NCBI GenBank assembly: GCA_963695855.1
Contig: CAVOHZ010000006.1
Location: forward strand, 32,001 to 96,000
DNA: 64,000 nt
Direction of reading: 5' to 3'
Source of the DNA: an uncultured Nitrososphaerales archaeon
GTDB taxonomy: Archaea; Thermoproteota; Nitrososphaeria; Nitrososphaerales; Nitrososphaeraceae
Position numbers and translations under genes: made by a program. The notes under the pieces are model-generated. The model saw nothing but the letters and a program-made list of their open reading frames with translations, was not told the DNA's origin and did no database searches. Below are positions 773 to 18,488 of this stretch, piece after piece; the first letter of the stretch is position 1, and every line of letters begins with the position of its first letter.

Positions 773-2386
773 TTAAGACATTTTCTTCCAGCTCTCTATT
801 TCCTTGATAATCGCTATGGGTCTTTCTGTAATTAGGGGGAGCTTACCTCCATAAACCGATCCAGTGGTACCATCTAATGTAATGTAGTCTCCCTCGTTGA
901 GAATATCCTTGTTAATAATACATGTCCGTTCTTTAAGATCTATCAATATTTCGCGACAGCCCACAATACACACTTTATCCATTTGTCTTGCAACTACTGC
1001 TGCATGAGATGTTCTTCCACCCTGATTCGTAACTAGCCCAGAGCATACGGCTATACCTGCAATATCATCAGTGGATATATCTTGACGAACTAGTACAAGT
1101 TGCCCGCCTTCGCTAGTCTTGCCAGTAGCTCTCTCTGAATCTAGCACGATTTTGCCCACTGCCACTCCACGATTTGCAGATATTCCTTTACATAATACCT
1201 TTAAATTAGAAGATGAAGATAAACTCGTTCTCGATATCTTATTTAAATCATATTTTTTAACTCTCTCCAACCCAGTAGCAAAATCTATCAATCCTTCATT
1301 CACTAGGTCCACAGCAATTTGAATAGCGGCCCAAGACGTTCGTTTACCAGTCCTTGACTGCAGAATAAAGAGCTTTCCTTCCTGAATTGTGAATTCAAAG
1401 TCCTGCATATCTTTGAACTCTGTTTCCAAACGCAACTTTATGTTCTGTATTTTCTTATATACTTGGGGCATTATCTTCTTTAGCTTTTCTGCATTCCTAA
1501 CTGCATGTCGGCCGGATACTATGTCCTCTCCTTGTGAATTGAAGAGGAAATCTATGTACAGACTATCTTCGCCTGTAGCGGGATCCCTAGTAAAAGCTAC
1601 GCCTGAACCCGATGTGGCTCCCATATTTCCAAAAACCATAGCTTGGATTATGGCCGCAGTTCCTATCAGATCCCTGATATCATGAAGCCTACGATATTCA
1701 ATCGCCCTTGGACTGTTCCAGGATCTAAAGACTGCTCCAATCGCTTCCCTCAGCTGAACGAGAGGCAGTTGGGGAAATGGAACATGTACATGTTCCTCAA
1801 ATATTTTCATGTAGATTCTTGACAAACTCTTGAGTTCTTCCGCACTGAGCTCTCTGACGTCCCTTAATCCTTTATTGATAATATCCTCTTTCAATATACT
1901 TTCAAAAAAATTTGGAGGACAACCATACACAACTTTAGCATATGTTTCAATCAATCGTCTATACGAATCCCAGACAAATTTTGGGTTTCCAGTCATTCTG
2001 ATCAACCCATCTATTGTAGAATCACAGAGACCGACATTCAATATTGATTCCAACATCCCCGGCATAGAAACTGCTGCGCCAGAACGGACGGATAAAAGTA
2101 AAGGCCTTCGTGAGCCTCCAAAAGTAAGACGGCTTGTATCTTCAATTTTCTTGATAAAGAATTCCACGGTATCTTCAAAATTCGGTGGAAGAATTTGATT
2201 ATTCCTCAGATACCTATCGCAAATTGATGTGCTTATCACAAATCCAGGGGGAACAGGGAGCATGATTTTGTCCATTCTCATTAGGTACATCGCCTTAGAA
2301 CCTACTTCAAATCCGCTAGGAAAGTGTGCATGAGAATTGGATGATCCGAAGAAATAGATATTTCCTTGATCTGTTTTGGTGGTCAT
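773..2386 (-). CDS. Truncated pyruvate phosphate dikinase-like protein: ATP-grasp and phosphohistidine swivel domains, no C-terminal PEP/pyruvate-binding barrel
   Basis: VGSKA, LPVPPGFVIST, LLSVRSGAAVSMPGM, VFGNMG..SGSGVAFTRDPATGE, QGEDIVSG, DMQDFEFTIQ..LFILQSR, GGRTSHAAVVARQM. ORF stops about 30 aa after ITLDG. Likely start MTTKT at 2386 (ORF track starts at 2500, overlapping the upstream gene). Confidence 0.9.
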   Translation of the reverse strand: MTTKTDQGNIYFFGSSNSHAHFPSGFEVGSKAMYLMRMDKIMLPVPPGFVISTSICDRYLRNNQILPPNFEDTVEFFIKKIEDTSRLTFGGSRRPLLLSVRSGAAVSMPGMLESILNVGLCDSTIDGLIRMTGNPKFVWDSYRRLIETYAKVVYGCPPNFFESILKEDIINKGLRDVRELSAEELKSLSRIYMKIFEEHVHVPFPQLPLVQLREAIGAVFRSWNSPRAIEYRRLHDIRDLIGTAAIIQAMVFGNMGATSGSGVAFTRDPATGEDSLYIDFLFNSQGEDIVSGRHAVRNAEKLKKIMPQVYKKIQNIKLRLETEFKDMQDFEFTIQEGKLFILQSRTGKRTSWAAIQIAVDLVNEGLIDFATGLERVKKYDLNKISRTSLSSSSNLKVLCKGISANRGVAVGKIVLDSERATGKTSEGGQLVLVRQDISTDDIAGIAVCSGLVTNQGGRTSHAAVVARQMDKVCIVGCREILIDLKERTCIINKDILNEGDYITLDGTTGSVYGGKLPLITERPIAIIKEIESWKKMS

Positions 2387-2474
2387 ATCTAATTGCAAGC
2401 AACACTTGATGTTATGTTGGTTAATTGTAGGAAGTTGCCAAGACAATTCTCTGCTTTGAAATATGATAAGTAGA

Positions 2475-4484
2475 TCAAATTGCAAGAACCTCATTGGCAT
2501 AGTCTCTTAATATCACAGCAGATTTAGTGAGTGAGTCGGTCCCCTCCTCTATATTCTTTGAGATTTCAGATAATATATGTAATTGCTTAAAATTATTTGA
2601 CTCATTCATTATAGCGGCGTTCACCTTACGGGTTACATCATCTGCTTGGTGTTCTAATGTAATGATTTTATCTATAGTTTCAAGAAAATCATCAATTTCT
2701 TCACGGGTACTCCATTTGTCTATAATTTTTACGTTTTCAATTGCCTTGAGGTACTCCATTGAACTATGCACAGCTAATTCTGCAAGGTCTAGTAGAGGTT
2801 CATAAAAATCTCCTATGATTTCTTCTTTAGAAACCAATGTCAATAAGAAAAGGGTTTCCTCCATGGAATCGGCAGCATCATCCGCATTACTCACGAAGTT
2901 CTCAAATACAATAGAGGCATTTGACCGCTTAAGTATAACACGAATATTATTCAACAAAGCGTCAGCATTTTTCTCCCAGACTTTCACTCTTTCGGCATTT
3001 CTCGTAATAAATTCTTGGTCGTCACTCTCTATCTGAACCAGGCCGTCCCTTACTATTGTACTAATTTCAACTACCAAAGATGCATGATTTGCAGCTATGT
3101 TTAGAAGGCTTTCATCAATACTGCGAAAATTTTTGGCGAGTTCAACTCTCACTTCATCACGTATTAGAAATTCCGATTTGCCTTCTATCAATCCTTCAGC
3201 ACAAGTTTGGAGAACAAATTTTAGGAATTCAATCGCCTTTTCTCTACTAAGAACATCCTCGAATTTATCCCCGAAATGAAGAGGGGACTTTGCAGTTTTT
3301 TTTATAGCATCGAAAATTAATTGTTCTCCGCCCATCTTCAGAAATCCCATATGACCCAAATCATTATCTGCAGCCCATTTCAATATGCTGAAGACATCCT
3401 CTTTCTTTACGAATATACCCAGACGTTTTCTTGCACGATTCCAATCAATTAGAAATACTATACGTGACGCCAAGAAAGAAAGATAGACTTCTAGATCCAT
3501 AGGATTTTTTGCGACATAAGTTCCGATGGAGATATGATACAGTCCAGAACCTTTAAATTTTTCACTTTGCCTTGATGTTGTGTTTTCCCACTTTACGTCA
3601 AATCTGTCAAGCATTGAATGAAAAAAAATTAGTCTTTGAATGTGTATATCAGAACAAGTTACTGAAACTGTCATTTCCTTAATTTTAATAACAAGTACGT
3701 GCGCATCAGTAGTTCCTATATCATTTTGGATTAATAACATATCTGCTGAACGGGTGGCTGTTGTATCCAGTCCAGGATGTTCAAACTTTAATTTTTTTGA
3801 TTTATTAATTCCCTTCATGAATGCTCGTACTAGTACCTTGTCATTGTCCGTTATCCCATAGACTTTCGCTCCATCGATGGATTCGTGATATATTAGAGAC
3901 TGTAGTCTGTTAAGCTCCTTATGAATTCCCATAACAAGAAGATGAAAACTGTCTCGATTTTTTGGTTCACCAGAAATAATATTGTCTATAATCAAATCTG
4001 AAATAATATCTTCATCTATTCTGGGGATTGTTGCCAATAGATCCTTGAATCTATTACGAAGACTATCATAATCTGCTATTTGGAACAGTTTTGAATTGGT
4101 AACTAAATTCGAGTCGTGTATTCTTTTTTGATCAGTTGGTTCGAAAAAAGTTTGTAAAGGAAGAATCATTTGCTTAATATTTTCGATTATATTGGCAATT
4201 ATAGGATTTACGTTGGGTATGTAATAGTAATTTTCAAGATCCGGCGTTTTGACGCTGTATTCTACTACTCTATCAAGATTAGTGTCTTGAATACCGCATT
4301 CTTCACGCTCGTTCCTAAGGTTTGAAAGTTCAATTTGAGGATTATCAGCGTGATGTTTTGCCATCTGAAGTAGTGAAAAAAAATACTTTACTCTGTCATT
4401 AGCATCGAACGCATCTGAAATCAGCTTTGGAAGTAAAAGTTCTCTAATTCCTAATTCTCGTATTATTTCTGCTTTCTCTGTCAA
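2475..4484 (-). CDS. 669-aa protein with an uncharacterised N-terminal/central region and a C-terminal PhoU-like/DUF47 double helical bundle
   Basis: C-terminal ~210 aa has the duplicated E-x-x-A-D and acidic-cluster pattern (WEKNAD...ADDAADSMEE; LEHQADD...IEEGTDSL). Central motifs KFEHPGLDTTATR, IQNDIGTTDAHVLVI, DIHIQRL. Confidence 0.7.
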   Translation of the reverse strand: MTEKAEIIRELGIRELLLPKLISDAFDANDRVKYFFSLLQMAKHHADNPQIELSNLRNEREECGIQDTNLDRVVEYSVKTPDLENYYYIPNVNPIIANIIENIKQMILPLQTFFEPTDQKRIHDSNLVTNSKLFQIADYDSLRNRFKDLLATIPRIDEDIISDLIIDNIISGEPKNRDSFHLLVMGIHKELNRLQSLIYHESIDGAKVYGITDNDKVLVRAFMKGINKSKKLKFEHPGLDTTATRSADMLLIQNDIGTTDAHVLVIKIKEMTVSVTCSDIHIQRLIFFHSMLDRFDVKWENTTSRQSEKFKGSGLYHISIGTYVAKNPMDLEVYLSFLASRIVFLIDWNRARKRLGIFVKKEDVFSILKWAADNDLGHMGFLKMGGEQLIFDAIKKTAKSPLHFGDKFEDVLSREKAIEFLKFVLQTCAEGLIEGKSEFLIRDEVRVELAKNFRSIDESLLNIAANHASLVVEISTIVRDGLVQIESDDQEFITRNAERVKVWEKNADALLNNIRVILKRSNASIVFENFVSNADDAADSMEETLFLLTLVSKEEIIGDFYEPLLDLAELAVHSSMEYLKAIENVKIIDKWSTREEIDDFLETIDKIITLEHQADDVTRKVNAAIMNESNNFKQLHILSEISKNIEEGTDSLTKSAVILRDYANEVLAI

Positions 4485-4989: not shown

Positions 4990-6348
4990 ATGAATCCGCA
5001 TCGAGAAAATTTGTTTCAGGATGAATTATATTTACTTGATTTTATGGACGCATCCGTTAATTGGACAAAATTAAATCTAGAATATATATCTGTATATATA
5101 GACACATATTTTAGCACCTCCCAGGATGTTCTAAAACTTGGACAATGGGACACATTCTACGATAGATGGTTATCAAATATCGACAGAGAATTAGAATGCG
5201 AGTTAGGCTCCAGGCAATTTACTAGTAATTTGAAAGATTGGATGAAGTCTACCATTAAATTACGATCAACTTATCGTACATTAGGATTTCCTATCGAACA
5301 TTACGACGAACTACTTTATTCAATCAAGAAGTTTATGATGAGTCTTTATGTTTTTCCTTTGATGCAAGAATTTGGATACTCTACTCCTTCAGAAGTGGTC
5401 TATACACTAGGAAAGGTTACTCTCCGTCACTATAAAAACAGTCAAAGTAAGCTTACCGCTGTTGGACTTCCTGTACTTATTGTATATGCACAGATTAATA
5501 GATTCAACATACTAGATATAAGCTCTGACAGAAGTGTGGTGAGGAATCTAACATCAAACGGTTTGGATGTGTACGTTCTGGATTGGGGGTACTCTGGAAG
5601 TCAAGATGATAACAGATCTGTTGAGGATTACGTGAAAATACTACACAGTGTTATGGATATCATCACTTCAAGGCACAAAAAAAATGATAAAATATCGATT
5701 CTAGGATATTGCTGGGGAGGATTAATTTCAATTATTTTCACAGCGCTTCATCCAGACAGAGTAAACGCTCTAGCTCTACTGGCTTCACCTGTTGATTCTA
5801 GCAAGGATAACAGTTTGCTAGCTGTTTGGGCACGCTCTATCGATGCTGATATGATAATACAAGAATTTGGTCATATGGATGGACAGATTCTTGACCTTGC
5901 TTTTATTATGAGGAATCCACCAAGAAACCTTTGTGACAAATATTTGAAATTGTTCAAAAACTTCAACGATAAACATTTTGTGAATTCTTTTTTAGCAGTT
6001 GAAAACTGGCTCTTTCGCACTCCTCCGATACCTGGTGTATTGTACCGTCAAATTATAAACGACCTGTACAAGAGAAATCTCTTGATTAGAAATGATATCA
6101 AGATAAACGGCAAAGCGGTTGACTTGAAGAAGATAGATGTTCCATTGTTAAATATAGTCGCTGAAAATGATGATTTGGTATCACCAGCTTCTTCCCTGGC
6201 TGTAAACGAATACGTATCAAGCGTAGATAAGAAGTCGATTAAAATACCAGGAGGCCATGTAGGTTTGTTAATTAGCAAGAGGGCGCATGAGAAACTGTGG
6301 CCTGAAGTCGCAGACTGGATACTGCTGTCTAGGACAAGAAGAAAATAA
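4990..6348 (+). CDS. phaC: Class III PHA synthase PhaC with a fused N-terminal PhaE-like segment
   Basis: STPSEVVY, PVLIVYAQINRFNILD, DVYVLDWG, lipase box GYCWGG, AENDDLV, GGHVGL. The first ~120 aa align by eye with PhaE at 52050. Confidence 0.85.
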   Translation: MNPHRENLFQDELYLLDFMDASVNWTKLNLEYISVYIDTYFSTSQDVLKLGQWDTFYDRWLSNIDRELECELGSRQFTSNLKDWMKSTIKLRSTYRTLGFPIEHYDELLYSIKKFMMSLYVFPLMQEFGYSTPSEVVYTLGKVTLRHYKNSQSKLTAVGLPVLIVYAQINRFNILDISSDRSVVRNLTSNGLDVYVLDWGYSGSQDDNRSVEDYVKILHSVMDIITSRHKKNDKISILGYCWGGLISIIFTALHPDRVNALALLASPVDSSKDNSLLAVWARSIDADMIIQEFGHMDGQILDLAFIMRNPPRNLCDKYLKLFKNFNDKHFVNSFLAVENWLFRTPPIPGVLYRQIINDLYKRNLLIRNDIKINGKAVDLKKIDVPLLNIVAENDDLVSPASSLAVNEYVSSVDKKSIKIPGGHVGLLISKRAHEKLWPEVADWILLSRTRRK

Positions 6349-7521
6349 CAATATGTTCCGGTTTCAATCTAATTACTGTTATGGATTTTCTCAATGTTTT
6401 GCTTCTTTGTTTACCTTCCTTTCCTGGTTTGGTAAGTGGTCACGCATGATCTGTAAGATCAGGAACATTCAAGCTGGATTTGCCATGAGGTAAAAGTAAT
6501 ATTTTTTCATTTTGGAGACAGATTATTTATATTTATATTAATTCTTAGACCTTTATCATAAGTGGAAAAAACTTAAGGAACAAATAATTAAATTTGATAA
6601 AATTTTAACTGTGCAATTCAACTTTTAGGTATCAATACAAAAATGAGCAGTGAATGGTTCTGATAGTATTTTTGGCCCTTGAACCTGTAAATTATCTCCA
6701 TGTATTTTTACATTGATACTTATTAAGAATCATAAAATAAAGAAAATTTTGAGATGTATTACATATTCTTCTTAAATCAATTGACACAAACTATCATTTT
6801 CACAAAGGGTTCGGATCATATTTAGAAGTATAATCGGTAATTATACAATTTCATAGTTGGTAGTATTCTTGTATTCAATAGTCTCTTGATTTCTCCTTTG
6901 GTCTTTGAGTGGAATGCAGTGACAGGAAGTTAGAAAGTCCAAATTTTCAGGATAAGGAATGATGTAAAGCATCATTGCATGAATTGCCAATATTATTTTA
7001 TTTGTGATTCTACTATGACAGGACTCATGCCCTGTTATAATCAGATAAGATTTGAATTTCAATTTGAACAGAATTTTAAAAAATAGGAATCTTTCTTCCT
7101 CTGCTTTTAAATGATAGGATATTTACAATATATTTTAGGGATTTTTAACCATCTCCTTCTTTTTGATATCCGTTCAGATATCTGTAGGAAACTGGCTCTG
7201 GAAATGTGGGGGATGTTTATAGCTACAAGTTACTCTCCGTCAATCGCGTTTGCGTCCAAGATACCATAGTCTAGTCTTGATCTTTTTCATATCGCACATA
7301 ATCTCACACTGCTTAATCCGAACGATCAAAAAATGTCCAAATGCTATAGCATGATAGAAATTATATAATCACATGCGAGTTTAAATTCCAATATTGTTTT
7401 AGAATTACTTCTCATTCCTTTTAACTTGAATGCGAATAATTCATCATGTATCTCATAGATTTCCAGACAACACGTCTTTTGCCAGATGTAGTTTTATTAA
7501 TTATAATTATAAGATTATTTT

Positions 7522-7642
7522 TTATTTGTTTATTTTATTCTTCCTTTCGTGTTTATTTTTATTATTATATTTTGATGTATTTATTGTCTCTATATCACTA
7601 CCAATTTTTTTTACTTCAGATTGTAGTCTAGAGATTTGAGAT
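7522..7642 (-). pseudogene. 3' remnant of a paralog of the Lys-rich protein at 15711-16343
   Basis: 7571-7642 matches 16003-16074 at 63/72 nt; translates SQISRLQSEVKKIGSDIETINTSKYNNKNKHERKNKINK*. Confidence 0.75.
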
Positions 7643-7749
7643 CCTTTGTTTTCGAATGGCGTTGGAATGGATTTTCTTCTACTGCAAATAATTGACCTAT
7701 ATTAAAGATAAAACAATTGAAGTTTTTGAGAAGGCATCTTTTTGAAGAA

Positions 7750-8820
7750 TAGATCTTTTGCGTAATAGATAAGCTTACAGCTATATTCCTCTTTTTTAGC
7801 AGTTATATTTCGTAGATTTGCTAAATTACGATAGATTATCCAGAAAACTACAAATGTTCAGGTCATTTACAGAATTGGAATTAACAGAATTTGATTCAAT
7901 TTACAAGGAAATTGAATCCAGATATAATGAATACGAGGTAAAACGTCTCTCTAAAAGAAAGAAGAGAAGAATAAGACCTGTAGGTATGGGAGGTAGACAC
8001 TTCAAACATCCAGTAAGAGATAGATTTCTTATGCTTTTGGTGTACTACAGATTATACATAACACATACACTTTCTGGTTTTCTGTTTGACTTGGACCAGA
8101 GCAATGTGTACAGGGATATAAGATACATAGAACCTTTAGTCAAAAAATGTATTCCATTACCAGAAAAACTGTACAATAGTACAAGACGGTTGAGATCTGT
8201 AGAAGAGGTAGAAAAGTACTTTCCTGAATTTAAGGCATTTATAGATGCAACCGAACAGGAGATACAAAGACCAAAAAACAAAAGAAAGAGGAGAAACTAC
8301 TATTCGGGCAAGAAGAAAAGACATACCGTAAAGACGCAGTACATGGTAAACAAAGAAGGAAAGATATTACATAAATCAGACCACAGAAAAGGAAGACAGC
8401 ATGACTATTCTGTTTACAAGGATCAACATCCTGCTACACCATCACAAGTAGAAAACTATTTTGATCTTGGATACCAAGGAATAAAAAATGATTTTCCAGA
8501 TCTGAAAGTAGCATTGCCAGCAGTAAAGAAGAAACGTAATATTGATCTTACCAAACAGGAGAAAAGGTACAATAGAAAACAGCGTAAACAGCGAACAATA
8601 GTAGAACATACAATCTGCAGGATAAAAAAATTTGGTATTATGAGTACCAGATACAGGAACAGACTGAAAAGATATGATACAGTATCAGATATTGTATCGG
8701 GTCTTGTTAATTACAGAATCATAAAGAAGAGTAATAATCTATCGCTACTATAGAACAAGAATACAGACAGAGAAGAGTAATAGGAGATTACAAAAATTGT
8801 TCAATTACGCAAGACATCTA
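7750..8820 (+). mobile_element. IS5-family (ISL2-like) insertion sequence
   Basis: Imperfect terminal inverted repeats tagatcttttgcgtaat (7750-7766) and attacgcaagacatcta (8804-8820), with TA at both outer ends, flanking one transposase. Confidence 0.85.
7818..8753 (+). CDS. Transposase (HTH plus DDE_Tnp_4-like domain)
   Basis: LMLLVYYR...LFDLDQSNVYR HTH; FIDATEQ, YYSGKKKRHTVKTQ, GRQHDY, DLGYQG, RTIVEHTI..IKKF. Confidence 0.92.
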   Translation: MLNYDRLSRKLQMFRSFTELELTEFDSIYKEIESRYNEYEVKRLSKRKKRRIRPVGMGGRHFKHPVRDRFLMLLVYYRLYITHTLSGFLFDLDQSNVYRDIRYIEPLVKKCIPLPEKLYNSTRRLRSVEEVEKYFPEFKAFIDATEQEIQRPKNKRKRRNYYSGKKKRHTVKTQYMVNKEGKILHKSDHRKGRQHDYSVYKDQHPATPSQVENYFDLGYQGIKNDFPDLKVALPAVKKKRNIDLTKQEKRYNRKQRKQRTIVEHTICRIKKFGIMSTRYRNRLKRYDTVSDIVSGLVNYRIIKKSNNLSLL

Positions 8821-9352: not shown

Positions 9353-9901
9353 TTGTACAAATTGGATCTATATATTATGAGGCATGGTGACGCTGGAAAA
9401 CGTCTTTCCGATTCTATACAAGACCGGTCAAGATCGTTAACACAACAAGGTCTGAAAGAAGTCAGAACGATTTCAAAATCTTTAAAGCTTCTAGATGTTA
9501 AATTCGATACAATATTTTCTAGTCCTCTCCCAAGAGCATTACAAACAGCTATTATTGTTGCTAATCAGTATAAATTAAAAAATAAAATAGAAAAATATGA
9601 TGAATTAATTTCTCAACAAGACAGGTTCATATTCTATGATATATTGGCTAATTATAATCGAATGTCTTCGATTCTAATTGTTGGACATGAACCATATCTC
9701 AGTACCATGATTAGTGACATCATATCAAATAGTGACGATAAAAATAAGACTAATAATGACATAAAATCAAATAGTAATATTATCCTAAAAAAGGCAGGTC
9801 TATCAAAAATTAGAATAACTTCTACTGTACCTACTTTACAAGGAGAATTAAGATGGTTACTTACACCAAATATTTTAAAAGAAGTCAAAGATACGTCATA
9901 A
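9353..9901 (+). CDS. sixA: Phosphohistidine phosphatase SixA (copy 1)
   Basis: LYIMRHGDA, SSPLPRALQTA, LIVGHEPYL, LKKAG, GELRWLLTP. Confidence 0.88.
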   Translation: MYKLDLYIMRHGDAGKRLSDSIQDRSRSLTQQGLKEVRTISKSLKLLDVKFDTIFSSPLPRALQTAIIVANQYKLKNKIEKYDELISQQDRFIFYDILANYNRMSSILIVGHEPYLSTMISDIISNSDDKNKTNNDIKSNSNIILKKAGLSKIRITSTVPTLQGELRWLLTPNILKEVKDTS

Positions 9902-10550
9902 CTTTACTGCCTGATATATCTTGTATTAAATTTTCATATCCTTGCAGATAATTTTCTATTGTCTACTAAATTTACTATGATATACTATATTGAATACATA
10001 TGTAAAACTAAAATTTCTTGTTCCTATATAACTATTGAATCAATATCTTGGAACTCTATATACTTAGACACGGAGAGACATCTAAAAAACTGTACTCCTC
10101 TGTAGATTCCAATCACTCTCTCACATTTTCAGGAAAATCTGAAATTGAAGAAATAGGCAATTCAATTAAAAAATTAAGAATCAAGATCGACTTAATATTA
10201 ACAAGTACTATCTCTTCAAGTCTAGAAACTGCGGATATAATAAATAATTTATTTAACAAAAAAATAAAAATCTTAAAATGCGAAGATCTACAACCAGAAG
10301 GAAACATATTAAATGTTTACAAAATTATATCTGAATTTGATCAAATGTCTTCGATTCTAATTGTTGGACATGAACCATATCTCAGTACCATGATTAGTGA
10401 CATCATATCAAATAGTGACGATAAAAATAAGACTAATAATGACATAAAATCAAATAGTAATATTATCCTAAAAAAGGCAGGTCTATCAAAAATTAGAATA
10501 ACTTCTACTGTACCTACTTTACAAGGAGAATTAAGATGGTTACTTACACC
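9661..10550 (+). repeat. 207-bp perfect direct repeat shared by the two sixA genes (9661-9867 and 10344-10550)
   Basis: Identical from aatgtcttcg to ttacacc; flanking 5' halves are divergent. Confidence 0.93.
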
Positions 10551-10575
10551 GAGACTATTAAAGAGTATTATCTAG
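10048..10575 (+). CDS. sixA: SixA-like protein (copy 2) with the second conserved Arg lost
   Basis: LYILRHGE and VGHEPYL present; TSTISSSLETA replaces S-P-x-x-R-A-x-Q-T-A. Confidence 0.8.
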   Translation: MELYILRHGETSKKLYSSVDSNHSLTFSGKSEIEEIGNSIKKLRIKIDLILTSTISSSLETADIINNLFNKKIKILKCEDLQPEGNILNVYKIISEFDQMSSILIVGHEPYLSTMISDIISNSDDKNKTNNDIKSNSNIILKKAGLSKIRITSTVPTLQGELRWLLTPRLLKSII

Positions 10576-12164
10576 ATAATACCATAAAGAAAGTGACTTA
10601 TGGAAAACCTTCATTCCGTAAAGTATCAGTAATAGATTTGGGATATAATTCCCTAAAATTAGTTCATTATATTACATCCTCTAATAAATATTATAAAAAA
10701 TACTATGAGAAAACTATTAGGGTGAGACTTGGAGAAGGTCTAAACAAAACAGGACTACTTAGAACAGAGGCTATCAATAGAACTATTGAATCTCTAAAAT
10801 ATTTTCGTGATCTTATTAATTCTGAATCCATTGAATTTACAATACCATTTGCTACTAGCGCAGTACGTGAGGCGGAAAATAAGAAATTGTTCCTGAGAAA
10901 AGTAGAAGAAGAAACAGGATTTAAATTCAAATTATTATCAGCTAATGAAGAAGCTGCATATTCATATCTTGGTGCGTTGAACTCACTATGTGTTTCAAAT
11001 TGCTTGTTTTTTGATCTGGGCGGCGGAACGATAGAATTAGTAAGTTCTAGAGATTATAAAATTAGGAGAGTAATGTCCCTTCCCTTGGGAACATTGAAGC
11101 TAACCCAGAAATTTTTTTCAAACAATGAAGATAAAAATACAACCACTAGTAAAAAATCTAAAAAGATTTATAATATTTTAGGAGGACATATTATGAATCA
11201 ATTACCCAATCCACAAGAATTAGACATAAATAGTGAATCTACTGTACTAATAGGTGCTGGGGGTACTCTTAGAACGATTGCAAGATATGATCAATTGATG
11301 AAAGAATATCCAATCACAAGATTACATAACTACAAACTAAATTTTCGTGCTGTATCAACCATCAAAGATGATCTATCTAAAATGAATAAAGAAGAGTTAT
11401 CTAATATAGATGTAATAGGACCAAATAGGGCAGAAACAATCAAGACAGGATTAAATGTAATCTACTTCCTTATGTCAAAATTCGGTCTTAAGAATATTAT
11501 TGTTAGTACAAAAGGATTACGAGAAGGAATGGTCTTAAATTTTCTTGAATCCTATCATTTAGATAATAGAACTGATTTGGATAGATATCTACTAAATAAC
11601 TGTAACAACAAAGACAAATGCAATTCAAGCTTAGCAAAGAAATTCCTATCTAACGGAATTATAACAGAAAATGAATACACTATTATTAATCAATCAATAT
11701 TATATATGTGCAAGATTCTGGCTAATGATAATATTGGTCAATTTTATGTTCTCCTCAATGAGGATATCAAAAATCTGGATCATCATCAACATGTTATATT
11801 AGCATTATCCCTTCTGGCAATCAATAAGCCAAAAATAGCTCTTGAACTATCTGAAAATTACAGAAATCTATTATATTATTATTATGATAAAAAAATGATC
11901 AAAAACATTATCGAAAGAATATCAACCTTCTTACGATTTTTAAATTTTGTGAAAAATAACAAATTAATAATTGAAATCAAAGAATTTACAAAAATAACAA
12001 ACAAGCTTTTACTGGAAATCATAATACAAAGTGATAAAAATAAAGACATCATTTCCTTTCCAGAAATTTTATTTAAAGAGATAATATCAGATTTTAAGTC
12101 TTCATTTGATCTTTCGATACAATATACATTAATTGTCCAAGATAAAAAAAAGGAGTACAATTAG
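10536..12164 (+). CDS. ppx: Ppx/GppA-family exopolyphosphatase with divergent C-terminus
   Basis: VIDLGYNSLKL, ATSAVREAEN, EEAAYSYLG, DLGGGTIE, GAGGTLR, GLREG. Likely start is the in-frame GTG at 10593. Confidence 0.88.
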   Translation: MVTYTETIKEYYLDNTIKKVTYGKPSFRKVSVIDLGYNSLKLVHYITSSNKYYKKYYEKTIRVRLGEGLNKTGLLRTEAINRTIESLKYFRDLINSESIEFTIPFATSAVREAENKKLFLRKVEEETGFKFKLLSANEEAAYSYLGALNSLCVSNCLFFDLGGGTIELVSSRDYKIRRVMSLPLGTLKLTQKFFSNNEDKNTTTSKKSKKIYNILGGHIMNQLPNPQELDINSESTVLIGAGGTLRTIARYDQLMKEYPITRLHNYKLNFRAVSTIKDDLSKMNKEELSNIDVIGPNRAETIKTGLNVIYFLMSKFGLKNIIVSTKGLREGMVLNFLESYHLDNRTDLDRYLLNNCNNKDKCNSSLAKKFLSNGIITENEYTIINQSILYMCKILANDNIGQFYVLLNEDIKNLDHHQHVILALSLLAINKPKIALELSENYRNLLYYYYDKKMIKNIIERISTFLRFLNFVKNNKLIIEIKEFTKITNKLLLEIIIQSDKNKDIISFPEILFKEIISDFKSSFDLSIQYTLIVQDKKKEYN

Positions 12165-12167
12165 TAA

Positions 12168-12887
12168 ATGACACAGGTAAAGATAAAAGGATCTAGTAAT
12201 ACAATAACTAATACGACAACTAAAAAAAATAAGGACAATTTAAAAGGTAAATTAATTATAGTTGAAGGAATTGATGGATCAGGAAAATCGACACAAATTC
12301 ATCTTCTTGATAAATGGCTTAAATTTAAGAATCTACAATCTTTTTTATCAGAGTGGAATTCATCTGAAATTGTAAAAAATGTAACCTCTAGAGGTAAGAA
12401 AAAAGAACAACTTACACCTACAACATTTTCGTTGCTGCACTCAACTGATTTTGCAGATCGGTACGAAAGGAATATTTTTCCGTTATTAAGGGCTGGTTAC
12501 ATAGTGTTGGCAGATAGATATATCTATACAGCATATGCACGAGATATAGTAAGGGGATGTGATCCACAATGGGTCAAAAAAGTATATGATTTTGCTTTAA
12601 AACCTGATATCACATTTTATTTCAGAGTTCCGGTGGATATAGCTGCAGGACGAATATTATCTGGAAGACCCAAGTTGAAATATTACGAGGCGGGAATGGA
12701 TCAAAATTTAAGTAATGATATTTATGAAAGTTATCGTATTTTTCAAAGTAGAATAATAGAACAATATGACAAAATGGTAATACCTGAAAATTTCGCTGTT
12801 ATAGATGGAACACTAAATATAGAAGAACAACAAAATATGGTTAGAGAAAAATTTAACAATACTATTCCTGCAGAGATGTTAAAATGA
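12168..12887 (+). CDS. Thymidylate-kinase-like protein with intact P-loop; candidate catalytic subunit of an archaeal heteromeric polyphosphate kinase (PPK3-like)
   Basis: VEGIDGSGKSTQ, LADRYIYTAYARD, LKYYEAGMD; directly follows ppx. Confidence 0.75.
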   Translation: MTQVKIKGSSNTITNTTTKKNKDNLKGKLIIVEGIDGSGKSTQIHLLDKWLKFKNLQSFLSEWNSSEIVKNVTSRGKKKEQLTPTTFSLLHSTDFADRYERNIFPLLRAGYIVLADRYIYTAYARDIVRGCDPQWVKKVYDFALKPDITFYFRVPVDIAAGRILSGRPKLKYYEAGMDQNLSNDIYESYRIFQSRIIEQYDKMVIPENFAVIDGTLNIEEQQNMVREKFNNTIPAEMLK

Positions 12888-13663
12888 GTAATTCAAATAA
12901 GGTGAAGAAAATGGAAAAATCTAATATTATTAAATATTATGGTCATGGAATTCCTTATTTGAAAAATATAGAATTAAAAGGTAAGTTGATCGTATTAGAA
13001 GGACCAGATTCATCAGGAAGAAGTACACAAATCTCATTATTGGATAATTACCTTGAAGCAAATGGTCATGCAGTTCTTAATTCAGGCCTTAGAAGATCTG
13101 AACTGATAAGTGATGGAATACTGGAGGCAAAAGAAAGACATTTATTAAGAAAAAGGACCATGAGTTTATTTTATGCTGCAGATTTTGCAGACCAGCTCGA
13201 GAATAAAATAATCCCAGCTTTGAGAGCAGGATATATAGTATTAGCAGATAGGTATATCTATACACTTATGGCTAGGGATGCTGTAAGAAACATTAATAGA
13301 ATATGGTCATCTAATTTATATGGTTTTGCAATTAAACCCGATCTTGTTTTTTATTTAGATGTAGACCCAAAGGAACTTATACGAAGGGCTTTTCAAAAAT
13401 CTACAGAGGAACTCTTGAAAGGAATTTTTGATAAAGATAATTTTCTTGATTACTATGAATCTGGAGAAGATATGGGTTTTTCGGATGATCTCTTAGAATC
13501 TTTTATTCTCTATCAAAAGAAAATGAAGCGAGAATTTATTAGAATACAAAACAAATATGGAATTATTAAAGTTAATGGAAATCGAACAGTAGAAGAAGTG
13601 CATAACGAGTTAAAACAAAAAATAGATCAATTTTTAAAAGTTCCATTCAATACATCAAAATAA
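12884..13663 (+). CDS. Second thymidylate-kinase-like protein with degenerate P-loop; candidate regulatory PPK3 subunit
   Basis: YYGHGIPY N-terminal motif, LEGPDSSGRSTQ (Walker A Lys replaced by Arg), LADRYIYTLMARD, LDYYESGED; ATGA overlap with the upstream paralog. Confidence 0.75.
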   Translation: MSNSNKVKKMEKSNIIKYYGHGIPYLKNIELKGKLIVLEGPDSSGRSTQISLLDNYLEANGHAVLNSGLRRSELISDGILEAKERHLLRKRTMSLFYAADFADQLENKIIPALRAGYIVLADRYIYTLMARDAVRNINRIWSSNLYGFAIKPDLVFYLDVDPKELIRRAFQKSTEELLKGIFDKDNFLDYYESGEDMGFSDDLLESFILYQKKMKREFIRIQNKYGIIKVNGNRTVEEVHNELKQKIDQFLKVPFNTSK

Positions 13664-17987: not shown

Positions 17988-18488
17988 ATGAAAAAACTTT
18001 TACTTGTACGTCATGGCAAATCCAGCTGGGATAATCCTGATACTGCAGATCATGAAAGACCGCTTACCAATCGAGGAAAAGAAGGTGCATCTATTATAGG
18101 CAAATTTTTAAAAAAAGAAAATCTTATTCCTGATCTAATTATTAGTTCCACTGCAAAAAGAGCAAATAAGACTGCAGATATAATTGGTAAAAAATCTGGT
18201 TATAACAAAAAGATTCTTGAATCAGAAGCATTGTATAGTGGTTCTTCAGAAGATTATACAAACATCATTCATGAAATCGCTGATAAAAATAAGACAGTCC
18301 TGTTAGTTGGACATAATCCTGTGATAGAAGATGTAGTAGAAAGAATTACTGCCGAAAAACGGCTCATGAAAACATGTTCCTTAGCACATATTGATTTGTC
18401 AATCGATTCTTGGAAAAATTTTCATTATAGAAAAAAATATAAACTCGTTGATTTGATCAATGTGAGAGAATTAGATATAGATGGATGA
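17988..18488 (+). CDS. SixA-like histidine phosphatase (copy 3, different subtype)
   Basis: LLLVRHGKSSW, DHERPLT.RG, SSTAKRANKTA, LVGHNP. Confidence 0.88.
   Translation: MKKLLLVRHGKSSWDNPDTADHERPLTNRGKEGASIIGKFLKKENLIPDLIISSTAKRANKTADIIGKKSGYNKKILESEALYSGSSEDYTNIIHEIADKNKTVLLVGHNPVIEDVVERITAEKRLMKTCSLAHIDLSIDSWKNFHYRKKYKLVDLINVRELDIDG

Follow-up and report, generated by a model that had tools for sequence, protein, structure and literature searches.

In several swivel-histidine dikinases, among them rifampin phosphotransferase, phenylphosphate synthase, glucan water dikinase and PigC/RedH, an ATP-grasp domain and a swivel histidine serve acceptor modules for substrates other than pyruvate, and in phenylphosphate synthase the acceptor module resides on a separate subunit. 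The closest described relative with only these two domains is VadK (Rv1127c; NCBIfam NF004531), a truncated pyruvate, phosphate dikinase (PPDK) of mycobacteria and other actinobacteria. In the main text of its report, VadK autophosphorylates on the equivalent swivel histidine with ATP and Mg2+, is presented as a kinase with a regulatory role that binds enzymes of metabolism, and becomes more soluble with Rv1126c, its operonic partner (PMC13400623). Here, we describe two adjacent genes, A and B, in a 64,000-nt stretch (hereafter the window) of contig 6 of an uncultured Nitrososphaerales archaeon, the genome of which is 3.55 Mb in size and 99.87% complete. Gene B (773..2386, minus strand) encodes a 537-aa PPDK homologue with ATP-grasp and swivel phosphohistidine domains and the same barrel-less architecture as VadK, lacking the phosphoenolpyruvate (PEP)/pyruvate barrel. 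Gene A (2475..4484, minus strand) starts with TTG and encodes a 669-aa protein in which an N-terminal domain is joined to a PhoU-like DUF47 bundle, as delimited by its open reading frame (ORF) and translation, Pfam and an AlphaFold2 model.

From their domain content, residue conservation, conserved pairing and fusions, we propose, with roughly even confidence, that A and B together make up a single two-subunit enzyme of the PPDK/PEP-utilising dikinase superfamily, in which the acceptor site would be located in A. The principle of a swivel-histidine dikinase is known; the novelty lies in the proposed acceptor module with its fold, and in the organization as two genes or one fusion. A literature search, supplementary files aside, found no paper on a pair of DUF47/PhoU and PPDK-like genes of this kind, and the words PhoU, DUF47 and archaea do not occur in the main text of the VadK paper (PMC13400623).

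A PPDK homologue without the pyruvate barrel

The start of gene B was set by its homologues at the ATG at 2386, the longest ORF in this frame (773-2500) being 575 aa long. Pfam detected PPDK_N (PF01326, 138.9 bits) and the PEP-utilizers mobile domain (PF00391, 74.6 bits) in the 537-aa protein, and nothing else. The PPDK model TIGR01828 matched over profile positions 4-514 of 865 with 575.6 bits, below its cut-off of 843.45, and PPDKs of solved structure (PDB, 873-876 aa) aligned to gene B over their residues ~5-516 only (E about 1e-125). These boundaries agree with an initial annotation of the window, which had described a PPDK homologue with ATP-grasp motifs and a T-S-H motif that ends where the barrel should begin. 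The swivel domain (860..1096, minus strand) aligns to the catalytic-histidine segment of the solved PPDKs and contains the T-S-H motif at residues 459-461 (nt 1004-1012), in which His461 (nt 1004-1006) is the predicted phospho-acceptor.

In an alignment of 51 gene B sequences, H461 was invariant (51/51) and T459 and S460 were nearly so. The other invariant positions include K31, R101, an S-M-P-G-M loop, E331, Q343 and R345, and together with H461 these presumably correspond to the ATP/phosphate-binding and catalytic residues of the Clostridium symbiosum PPDK. Judging from this conservation, the catalytic apparatus of the first PPDK half-reaction is kept in gene B.

The initial annotation had also recognized no barrel-coding sequence downstream of gene B, and this extends to the whole genome. 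The next gene is a convergent pyridine-nucleotide-disulphide oxidoreductase, and a search for the PEP/pyruvate barrel (PEP-utilizers_C, PF02896) gave no match anywhere in the genome, while the same search was positive in 14 of 14 control genomes; PPDK_N was found in this genome only in gene B. Because a 99.87%-complete genome contains no such barrel, the archaeon has, by this search, neither PPDK nor PEP synthase to produce PEP from pyruvate. In a sample of 61 Nitrososphaeraceae genomes that includes this one and was used for presence and absence throughout the family, the barrel was detected in 19, including 3 of the 5 sampled genomes of the same genus.

One explanation for a short PPDK homologue is decay, in which the 3' end of a PPDK gene would have been lost in this strain and the remnant would happen to lie beside an unrelated gene. 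Gene B is indeed annotated as 'pyruvate, phosphate dikinase' in public records, and the start of gene A is 3.3 kb away from a transposase gene. The best 120 relatives of gene B are nevertheless all short (324-582 aa) and carry PF01326 and PF00391 only, many of them also under the database label 'pyruvate, phosphate dikinase'. In an IQ-TREE phylogeny, a branch with 100/100 support parted 27 gene B proteins from the N-terminal parts of 7 full-length PPDKs (four phyla); the tree is unrooted, so that B forms one clade only if the root falls outside B, and one full-length ORF (L100) was left out for want of a BLAST row for trimming. The frame of gene B is open, its catalytic residues are invariant, and both its pairing with gene A and its fusions to A (74 proteins, see below) are conserved. 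The strain-specific truncation considered in the initial annotation is therefore ruled out, and we regard decay of a PPDK gene, to which we assign a negligible probability, as excluded.

Two further observations set gene B apart from PPDK. The absent barrel and the score below the curated TIGR01828 cut-off indicate that it is not a PPDK, and a full-length PPDK above that cut-off is encoded elsewhere in 4 of 5 checked genomes that carry the pair (the exception being the Thiobacillus genome G063), so that gene B is no substitute for PPDK where both coexist. Gene B has the ATP-grasp domain and the T-S-H swivel domain in common with PPDK, collinear with its residues ~5-516, and differs from it in lacking the PEP/pyruvate TIM barrel, in its own clade and in being paired with or fused to gene A. 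On these sequence comparisons, gene B is a lineage apart and not a broken PPDK.

Gene B also differs from the other described members of the superfamily. The VadK model NF004531 gave 444.7 bits over positions 26-462 of 534, just below its cut-off of 456, and gene B scores higher on the canonical PPDK model TIGR01828 than on NF004531. The match to the rifampin phosphotransferase (RPH) model NF041857 reached 36.1 bits against a cut-off of 999 and was confined to the ATP-grasp part; more generally, the NCBIfam models for RPH, PigC and RedH matched gene B weakly, far below their cut-offs and in the shared domains only.

Genes A and B form a conserved unit

The initial annotation had proposed to look for homologues of the 669-aa protein and to score how often a barrel-less PPDK lies beside them. 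A contig scan with the single gene A protein as query returned no relative, and relatives were recovered with an alignment-based scan. Relatives of A numbered 4051 at E<=0.001 (from 8000 scored candidates in 90%-identity clusters) and 1042 among 50%-identity representatives. Gene context was studied in the best 80 of at least 576 gene A relatives from the alignment-based scan, with one genome per species. Gene B is located directly downstream of A on the same strand in 72 of these 80 loci, corresponding to 72 of the 76 informative ones, as the remaining four (L033, L037, L052 and L058) have <300 bp beyond gene A. The spacing in relatives ranges from an overlap to about 180 bp. In five of the 72 loci gene B is cut by the contig end, and in two it is in pieces.

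The latter two are a Methanoregula metagenome-assembled genome (MAG; L046:3317-4995) and the Solemya velesiana gill symbiont (L068:2271-3797), in which gene B was recovered in two or three tblastn pieces, which suggests frameshifts, faulty assembly or pseudogenes.

Both proteins have their closest named relatives in Nitrososphaeraceae archaea, and the 80 loci span a much wider range. They comprise Nitrososphaerota; Methanomicrobiales (Methanoregula, Methanolinea and Methanoculleus); Planctomycetota; Burkholderiales/Rhodocyclaceae, with Accumulibacter among them; Thiobacillus; Geobacteraceae/Desulfuromonadales; Gemmatimonadales; Acidimicrobiaceae; and others. Several carriers of the pair matter in the environment, such as soil ammonia oxidisers and, in wastewater, Accumulibacter and further phosphate accumulators. 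Carriers available in culture are, for example, Methanoculleus frigidifontis FWC-SCC1 (L041) and Rhodocyclaceae strain SMB388 (L075).

In some organisms A and B are found in a single chain of ~1200 aa. DUF47, PPDK_N and the mobile domain occur together in all 74 gene A relatives of more than 1171 aa, which are thus A-B fusions, with the order A then B in P0153 and P0164. A Gemmatimonadales locus (L053; G064:C3:850544-852076) has a 1177-aa open frame that runs through B, and A and B appear to be fused there as well.

Co-occurrence is also strict within the family. Among the 61 Nitrososphaeraceae genomes, full-length A was detected in this genome (G000), G020 and G039, and a short B (53-55% identity) in exactly the same three; in G020 and G039, A and B lie next to each other. 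The remaining matches to the B query were full-length PPDKs with 36-42% identity and one 263-aa frame (G059, 35%). Fragments of gene A, some with internal stops, occur in G055 (L004 on C36 and L006 on C61) and in G051 (L005/L007 on C273), where no short B was found; these look like remnants of lost copies.

FastTree phylogenies of A and B from 46 loci shared 22 of 43 splits, compared with a mean of 0.1 and a maximum of 2 after label shuffling, and no conflict was seen among the 20 and 19 splits with support >=0.95 in the A and B trees, respectively. Odd placements are mirrored in both trees, with an Acidobacteriota locus among methanogens and Dongiaceae loci among Geobacteraceae. A shared species history could account for much of this agreement.

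When the flanking ORFs were clustered, only A and B were conserved, and the next real family was present in 7 of 80 loci; a cluster covering 15 loci proved to be an artefact of antisense ORFs inside gene A. A Pyr_redox_2 gene follows the pair in 7 methanogen loci, as one does in the window, and the two kinds of oxidoreductase share 29% identity over 86 residues; at this level of similarity, we consider the common neighbour a coincidence. In loci of the Burkholderiales type, the co-oriented gene after B encodes a P-type cation ATPase of ~870 aa (L025:3965-6574, L026:8633-11257 and L030:8671-11304).

In four loci, 1.7-5 kb of sequence lies beyond gene A and contains no B. All four (L072, L073, L084 and L085) belong to Stellaceae/Rhodospirillales, and in these genomes and that of the related L058 the B query matched only full-length PPDK-type genes (41-44% identity); the five genomes contain three PPDK-type open frames of 874-928 aa and two that are cut by contig ends. 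Gene A of this clade keeps all invariant residues, and its flanking genes give no clue.

Taken together, A and B are a conserved unit, and the short form of B is not a strain-specific truncation. These fusions and the co-inheritance also bear on the possibility that A is only a regulator or scaffold, with B acting on other targets, as VadK does, and the PhoU-like part of A gating B according to phosphate status. The case of VadK, whose operonic partner Rv1126c improves its solubility (PMC13400623), would be an analogy for such a role, and the clade in which A occurs alone may indicate that A has a function of its own. The 74 covalent fusions, the strict co-inheritance and the very high conservation of the N-terminal domain of A argue for more than gating, and we consider this explanation quite unlikely.

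Thousands of database entries are probably mislabelled as 'pyruvate, phosphate dikinase' in the case of B or as 'DUF47 family protein' in that of A. Metabolic reconstructions are affected by this, as the present genome would be credited with PPDK despite having no barrel.

Gene A joins a domain without a matched fold to a PhoU-like bundle

Upstream of gene B, the initial annotation had placed a co-oriented partner 88 bp away, in which an unassigned domain with FEHPG, NDIGTTDAH and DIH motifs is followed by a PhoU-like bundle, and each part of this description was borne out. Both ORFs are on the minus strand, and the spacer between the stop of A at 2475 and the ATG of B at 2386 is exactly 88 bp (2387..2474). 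Pfam PF01865 (DUF47/PhoU_div) matched residues 465-650 of A with 37.4 bits (cut-off 24.4), and NCBIfam gave no match. The AlphaFold2 model of the whole protein has a predicted local distance difference test (pLDDT) score of 92.1 and that of residues 1-437 a score of 90.6, and when the whole model was compared with the PDB using Foldseek, only the PhoU-like part was matched.

That part (residues 438-669; 2478..3173, minus strand) is a six-helix bundle, with 3l39 as a match (E 2.6e-4, template modelling (TM) score by target 0.84), as well as 2iiu and 2olt. Its acidic motifs lie at residues 535-543 and 611-619, where D535, D539, E542, E611, D615 and R619 are nearly invariant. The PhoU/DUF47 proteins of these PDB entries have the same six-helix bundle and two acidic motifs as the C-terminal 230 residues of A; known ones are stand-alone proteins of about 210 aa (208-217 aa in the solved cases), whereas A has 669 aa, with 437 additional residues, and is tied to a dikinase. 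In both batches of flanking ORFs (see below), no Pit-type transporter family ranks among the 25 most frequent.

The N-terminal domain (residues 1-437; 3174..4484, minus strand) is modelled as long helices around a six-stranded antiparallel sheet. Foldseek found no PDB structure at E<=0.001, with all TM scores below 0.3; a profile of the domain had no match among PDB sequences at E<=10; Pfam gave no consistent match in 40 members; and in the ESM Atlas the best score was 0.77, to an unnamed cluster, with no usable match among named clusters. The influenza PA protein, an Arp2/3 subunit and the large glutamate dehydrogenase appeared as candidate folds with TM scores below 0.3, which we treat as noise, and phosphagen/arginine kinases and YbjN were rejected as folds for gene A (probability 0.1-0.7, TM about 0.1-0.3). 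According to the model, the 437-aa domain is a well-conserved, confidently predicted fold without a known relative.

Conservation was analysed in 75 gene A sequences with identities to the query down to 29%. The N-terminal domain has 17 invariant columns, of which 7 are charged or polar and located on adjacent strands and loops. The invariant residues include R145, H262, D279, H281, R284, D347, W348 and N349, while H181, H188, H236, N254, D255, T259, R341, R352, K353 and H378 are nearly invariant. Many of them fall into two stretches on the minus strand. The first is a His/Asp cluster (3642..3785) on neighbouring strands and loops of the sheet, formed by FEHPG (residues 234-238), NDIGTTDAH (254-262) and DIH (279-281), the three motifs that the initial annotation had picked out and that coincide with invariant or nearly invariant columns. 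The second (residues 342-355; 3420..3461) contains the invariant D347-W348-N349 and the nearly invariant R352 and K353, with R341 flanking it. In the model, H262 is at the start of one strand and D279/H281 are at the end of the next, and this strand order in a hairpin suggests that they should cluster.

Such invariant His and Asp residues could also be the acceptors of a signalling phosphorelay, close to what the initial annotation had suggested. B would then be an autokinase with a phosphohistidine that tracks ATP/AMP and Pi/pyrophosphate (PPi), A would be phosphorylated by it, and the bundle would signal to the metabolism of phosphate or storage polymers. Bundles of the PhoU family are known to regulate the uptake of phosphate, as titles of PDB entries also indicate, SixA-like genes lie near the pair in the window, and the His_Phos_1 family was found in 2 of 124 flanking ORFs elsewhere. 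VadK provides the analogy of a protein with the same two domains that autophosphorylates and acts as a regulator (PMC13400623). Against a relay, Pfam detected no HisKA, HATPase_c, HPt, receiver or DNA-binding domain in A or B, nor any HisKA, HATPase_c, HPt or receiver domain in the 40 N-terminal domains of gene A; no third gene is conserved among the 80 loci as an output; and one clade has A without B. A receiver would also not be expected to need a 437-aa domain so rich in invariant polar residues, and the polar conservation of this domain, which extends to about twenty residues, looks more like that of an enzyme active site than that of a relay receiver. We therefore regard a relay as possible, though doubtful; it would be a second and much wider case of PPDK-derived kinase signalling after VadK.

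Proposed reaction of the two-subunit enzyme

In the proposed two-subunit dikinase, B would contribute the equivalent of the first two-thirds of PPDK, and its ATP-grasp domain would use ATP, and probably Pi, to give phosphorylated His461, AMP and PPi. The formation of phosphorylated His461 from ATP is suggested by the conserved elements of the half-reaction and by the autophosphorylation of VadK (PMC13400623). The swivel domain would carry the phosphoryl group to an acceptor site in the N-terminal domain of A, which would replace the pyruvate barrel, either in trans or within a fusion protein. It is reasonable to suppose that A provides the acceptor function in trans, since the clean truncation is the norm of the family and the pairing with A is strongly conserved. 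The acceptor site would consist of the constellation of R145, H262, D279, H281, R284, D347 and N349, and the PhoU-like bundle may bind or sense phosphate species, or tether the two parts. We infer the autophosphorylation, the transfer to the site in A and the identity of the acceptor. A structure prediction for the complex of A (residues 1-437) with B had scores of 0.00 and 0.01, with a mark of 0.32, and was counted neither for nor against the proposal.

The principle of an acceptor module for substrates other than pyruvate is shared with the swivel-histidine dikinases introduced above, and the module in gene A is unrelated to theirs. Our best guess for the acceptor is an inorganic phosphate compound, that is, Pi, PPi or a polyphosphate chain that would be extended at its end, and the reaction would be reversible like that of PPDK, for example ATP + Pi + polyP(n) <-> AMP + PPi + polyP(n+1). 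A precedent for transfer from phosphohistidine to polyphosphate is the polyphosphate kinase PPK1, in which phosphate passes from ATP to a phosphohistidine and then to polyphosphate. We favour an inorganic phosphate species or polyphosphate because of this precedent, the PhoU-like bundle, the fusions of A with CHAD domains and the Ppx and CHAD genes beside the pair.

CHAD domains are polyphosphate-binding modules (PMC6537752). A CHAD-A fusion was confirmed by Pfam in P0102, detected by BLAST in L037 and indicated by precomputed labels in P0094 and P0123, and CHAD genes adjoin A in L035, L057 and L082. Ppx-GppA genes adjoin the pair in L041, L048, L057, L093 and L094, representing at least 4 lineages. 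Two loci illustrate the arrangement: in a Geobacteraceae MAG (L048:2872-7963) the order is Ppx-A-B, with ppx overlapping the start of A by 4 nt, and in a Dongiaceae MAG (L057:1692-7723) CHAD, Ppx, A and B follow one another on one strand. The proteins of these two loci are very close (tree distance about 0.1), so that the L057 contig may have been mis-binned or recently transferred. The connection with phosphate storage made in the initial annotation thus extends beyond the window, to polyphosphate-type neighbours or fusions in 8 of 80 loci, which represent several unrelated lineages, a count given without a statistic because related genomes are not independent. Among the flanking ORFs, of which 194 of at least 150 aa (out of 250 collected) were searched with Pfam in two batches, 147 and 81 different families were detected; Ppx-GppA had 3 and 2 members and CHAD had 3, and no other theme was prominent.

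Alternatively, the pair could be a dikinase for an organic acceptor, with A binding a metabolite, a cofactor or a xenobiotic and the phosphate-related neighbours being incidental. Within the superfamily, ATP-grasp and swivel modules of the same kind are indeed combined with acceptor domains that are unrelated to one another, and 72 of the 80 loci have no polyphosphate gene nearby. Neither biosynthetic nor catabolic genes are conserved beside the pair, though, inorganic phosphate species are suggested by the PhoU-like bundle and by the fusions with CHAD, and the RPH model scored 36.1 of the 999 bits required. We consider an organic acceptor unlikely. A role in anti-phage defence was dropped, as PADLOC contained no matching family for gene A or for gene B.

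Some observations weigh against the two-subunit enzyme and its proposed acceptor. The Stellaceae/Rhodospirillales clade, with A and no short B, implies that A either can do without B or has a full-length PPDK as its partner there. The N-terminal domain of A has no detectable relative of known function. VadK, the one truncated PPDK that has been studied, is described as a regulatory kinase rather than as part of a new multisubunit enzyme (PMC13400623), an analogy that would favour signalling. Polyphosphate-related neighbours or fusions occur in only 8 of 80 loci, and most flanking genes are unrelated. A new reversible polyphosphate (or pyrophosphate) dikinase, with polyphosphate or Pi as the acceptor, is a tentative and rather unlikely specification of the two-subunit enzyme. 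The pair shares its neighbourhood with ppx and CHAD genes but has no sequence or fold similarity to any polyphosphate kinase, and a polyphosphate activity of A and B is a hypothesis.

If the acceptor is a phosphate species, A and B would constitute a new enzyme of polyphosphate or pyrophosphate energy metabolism. A polyphosphate dikinase running backwards would convert AMP, PPi and polyphosphate directly into ATP and might serve as an energy buffer in ammonia-oxidising archaea, methanogens, Accumulibacter-type accumulators and others, and its acceptor domain would be a protein fold new to phosphotransfer. The natural A-B fusions make the question directly testable in vitro.

Genomic neighbourhood in the window

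Upstream of gene A and divergent from it is a gene for a PhaC-like polyhydroxyalkanoate synthase of the class III type (4990..6348, plus strand; Pfam), which we report as context and not as a part of the system shown here. No credible ORF for a PhaE partner was found at 6348-7818. A divergent PhaC-like gene is also located upstream of A in two Nitrosopumilales loci (L017:2929-4317 and L018:1558-2937). A DDE transposase gene (DDE_Tnp_4 and HTH; 7818-8753), the one 3.3 kb from the start of A, separates the block of phaC, A and B from a polyphosphate operon.

This operon consists of two SixA-like histidine-phosphatase genes (9353-9901 and 10048-10575), ppx (10536-12164) and two thymidylate-kinase-like genes (12168-12887 and 12884-13663). 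The order SixA, ppx and thymidylate-kinase-like gene is that of the operon described for the PPK3 polyphosphate kinase of Sulfolobaceae and Nitrososphaeraceae, the families in which PPK3 is mainly reported (PMC12995831). The A-B pair is 5-6 kb away from it. A third SixA-like (His_Phos_1) gene lies at 17988-18488, and these three phosphohistidine-phosphatase-type genes may or may not be connected with the predicted phosphohistidine enzyme nearby.

Base composition and origin

The initial annotation had described the block as richer in GC than ppx and had suggested that it was acquired. The first statement holds for gene B, which has the highest GC content of the 30 ORFs in the window (0.403; mean 0.333, standard deviation 0.027) and a GC content at third codon positions of 0.359 (mean 0.248). 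It holds weakly for gene A (0.355); phaC is mildly raised (0.367), and ppx is low (0.285). As for acquisition, the pair was found in none of the 5 other genomes of the same genus, which together with the GC content of B speaks for it. In the IQ-TREE phylogeny, on the other hand, the gene B protein of the window groups with other thaumarchaeal B proteins (support 98/90), so that any transfer was probably within the phylum. This pattern fits an accessory, loss-prone block that moves within the phylum better than it fits one recently acquired from bacteria.

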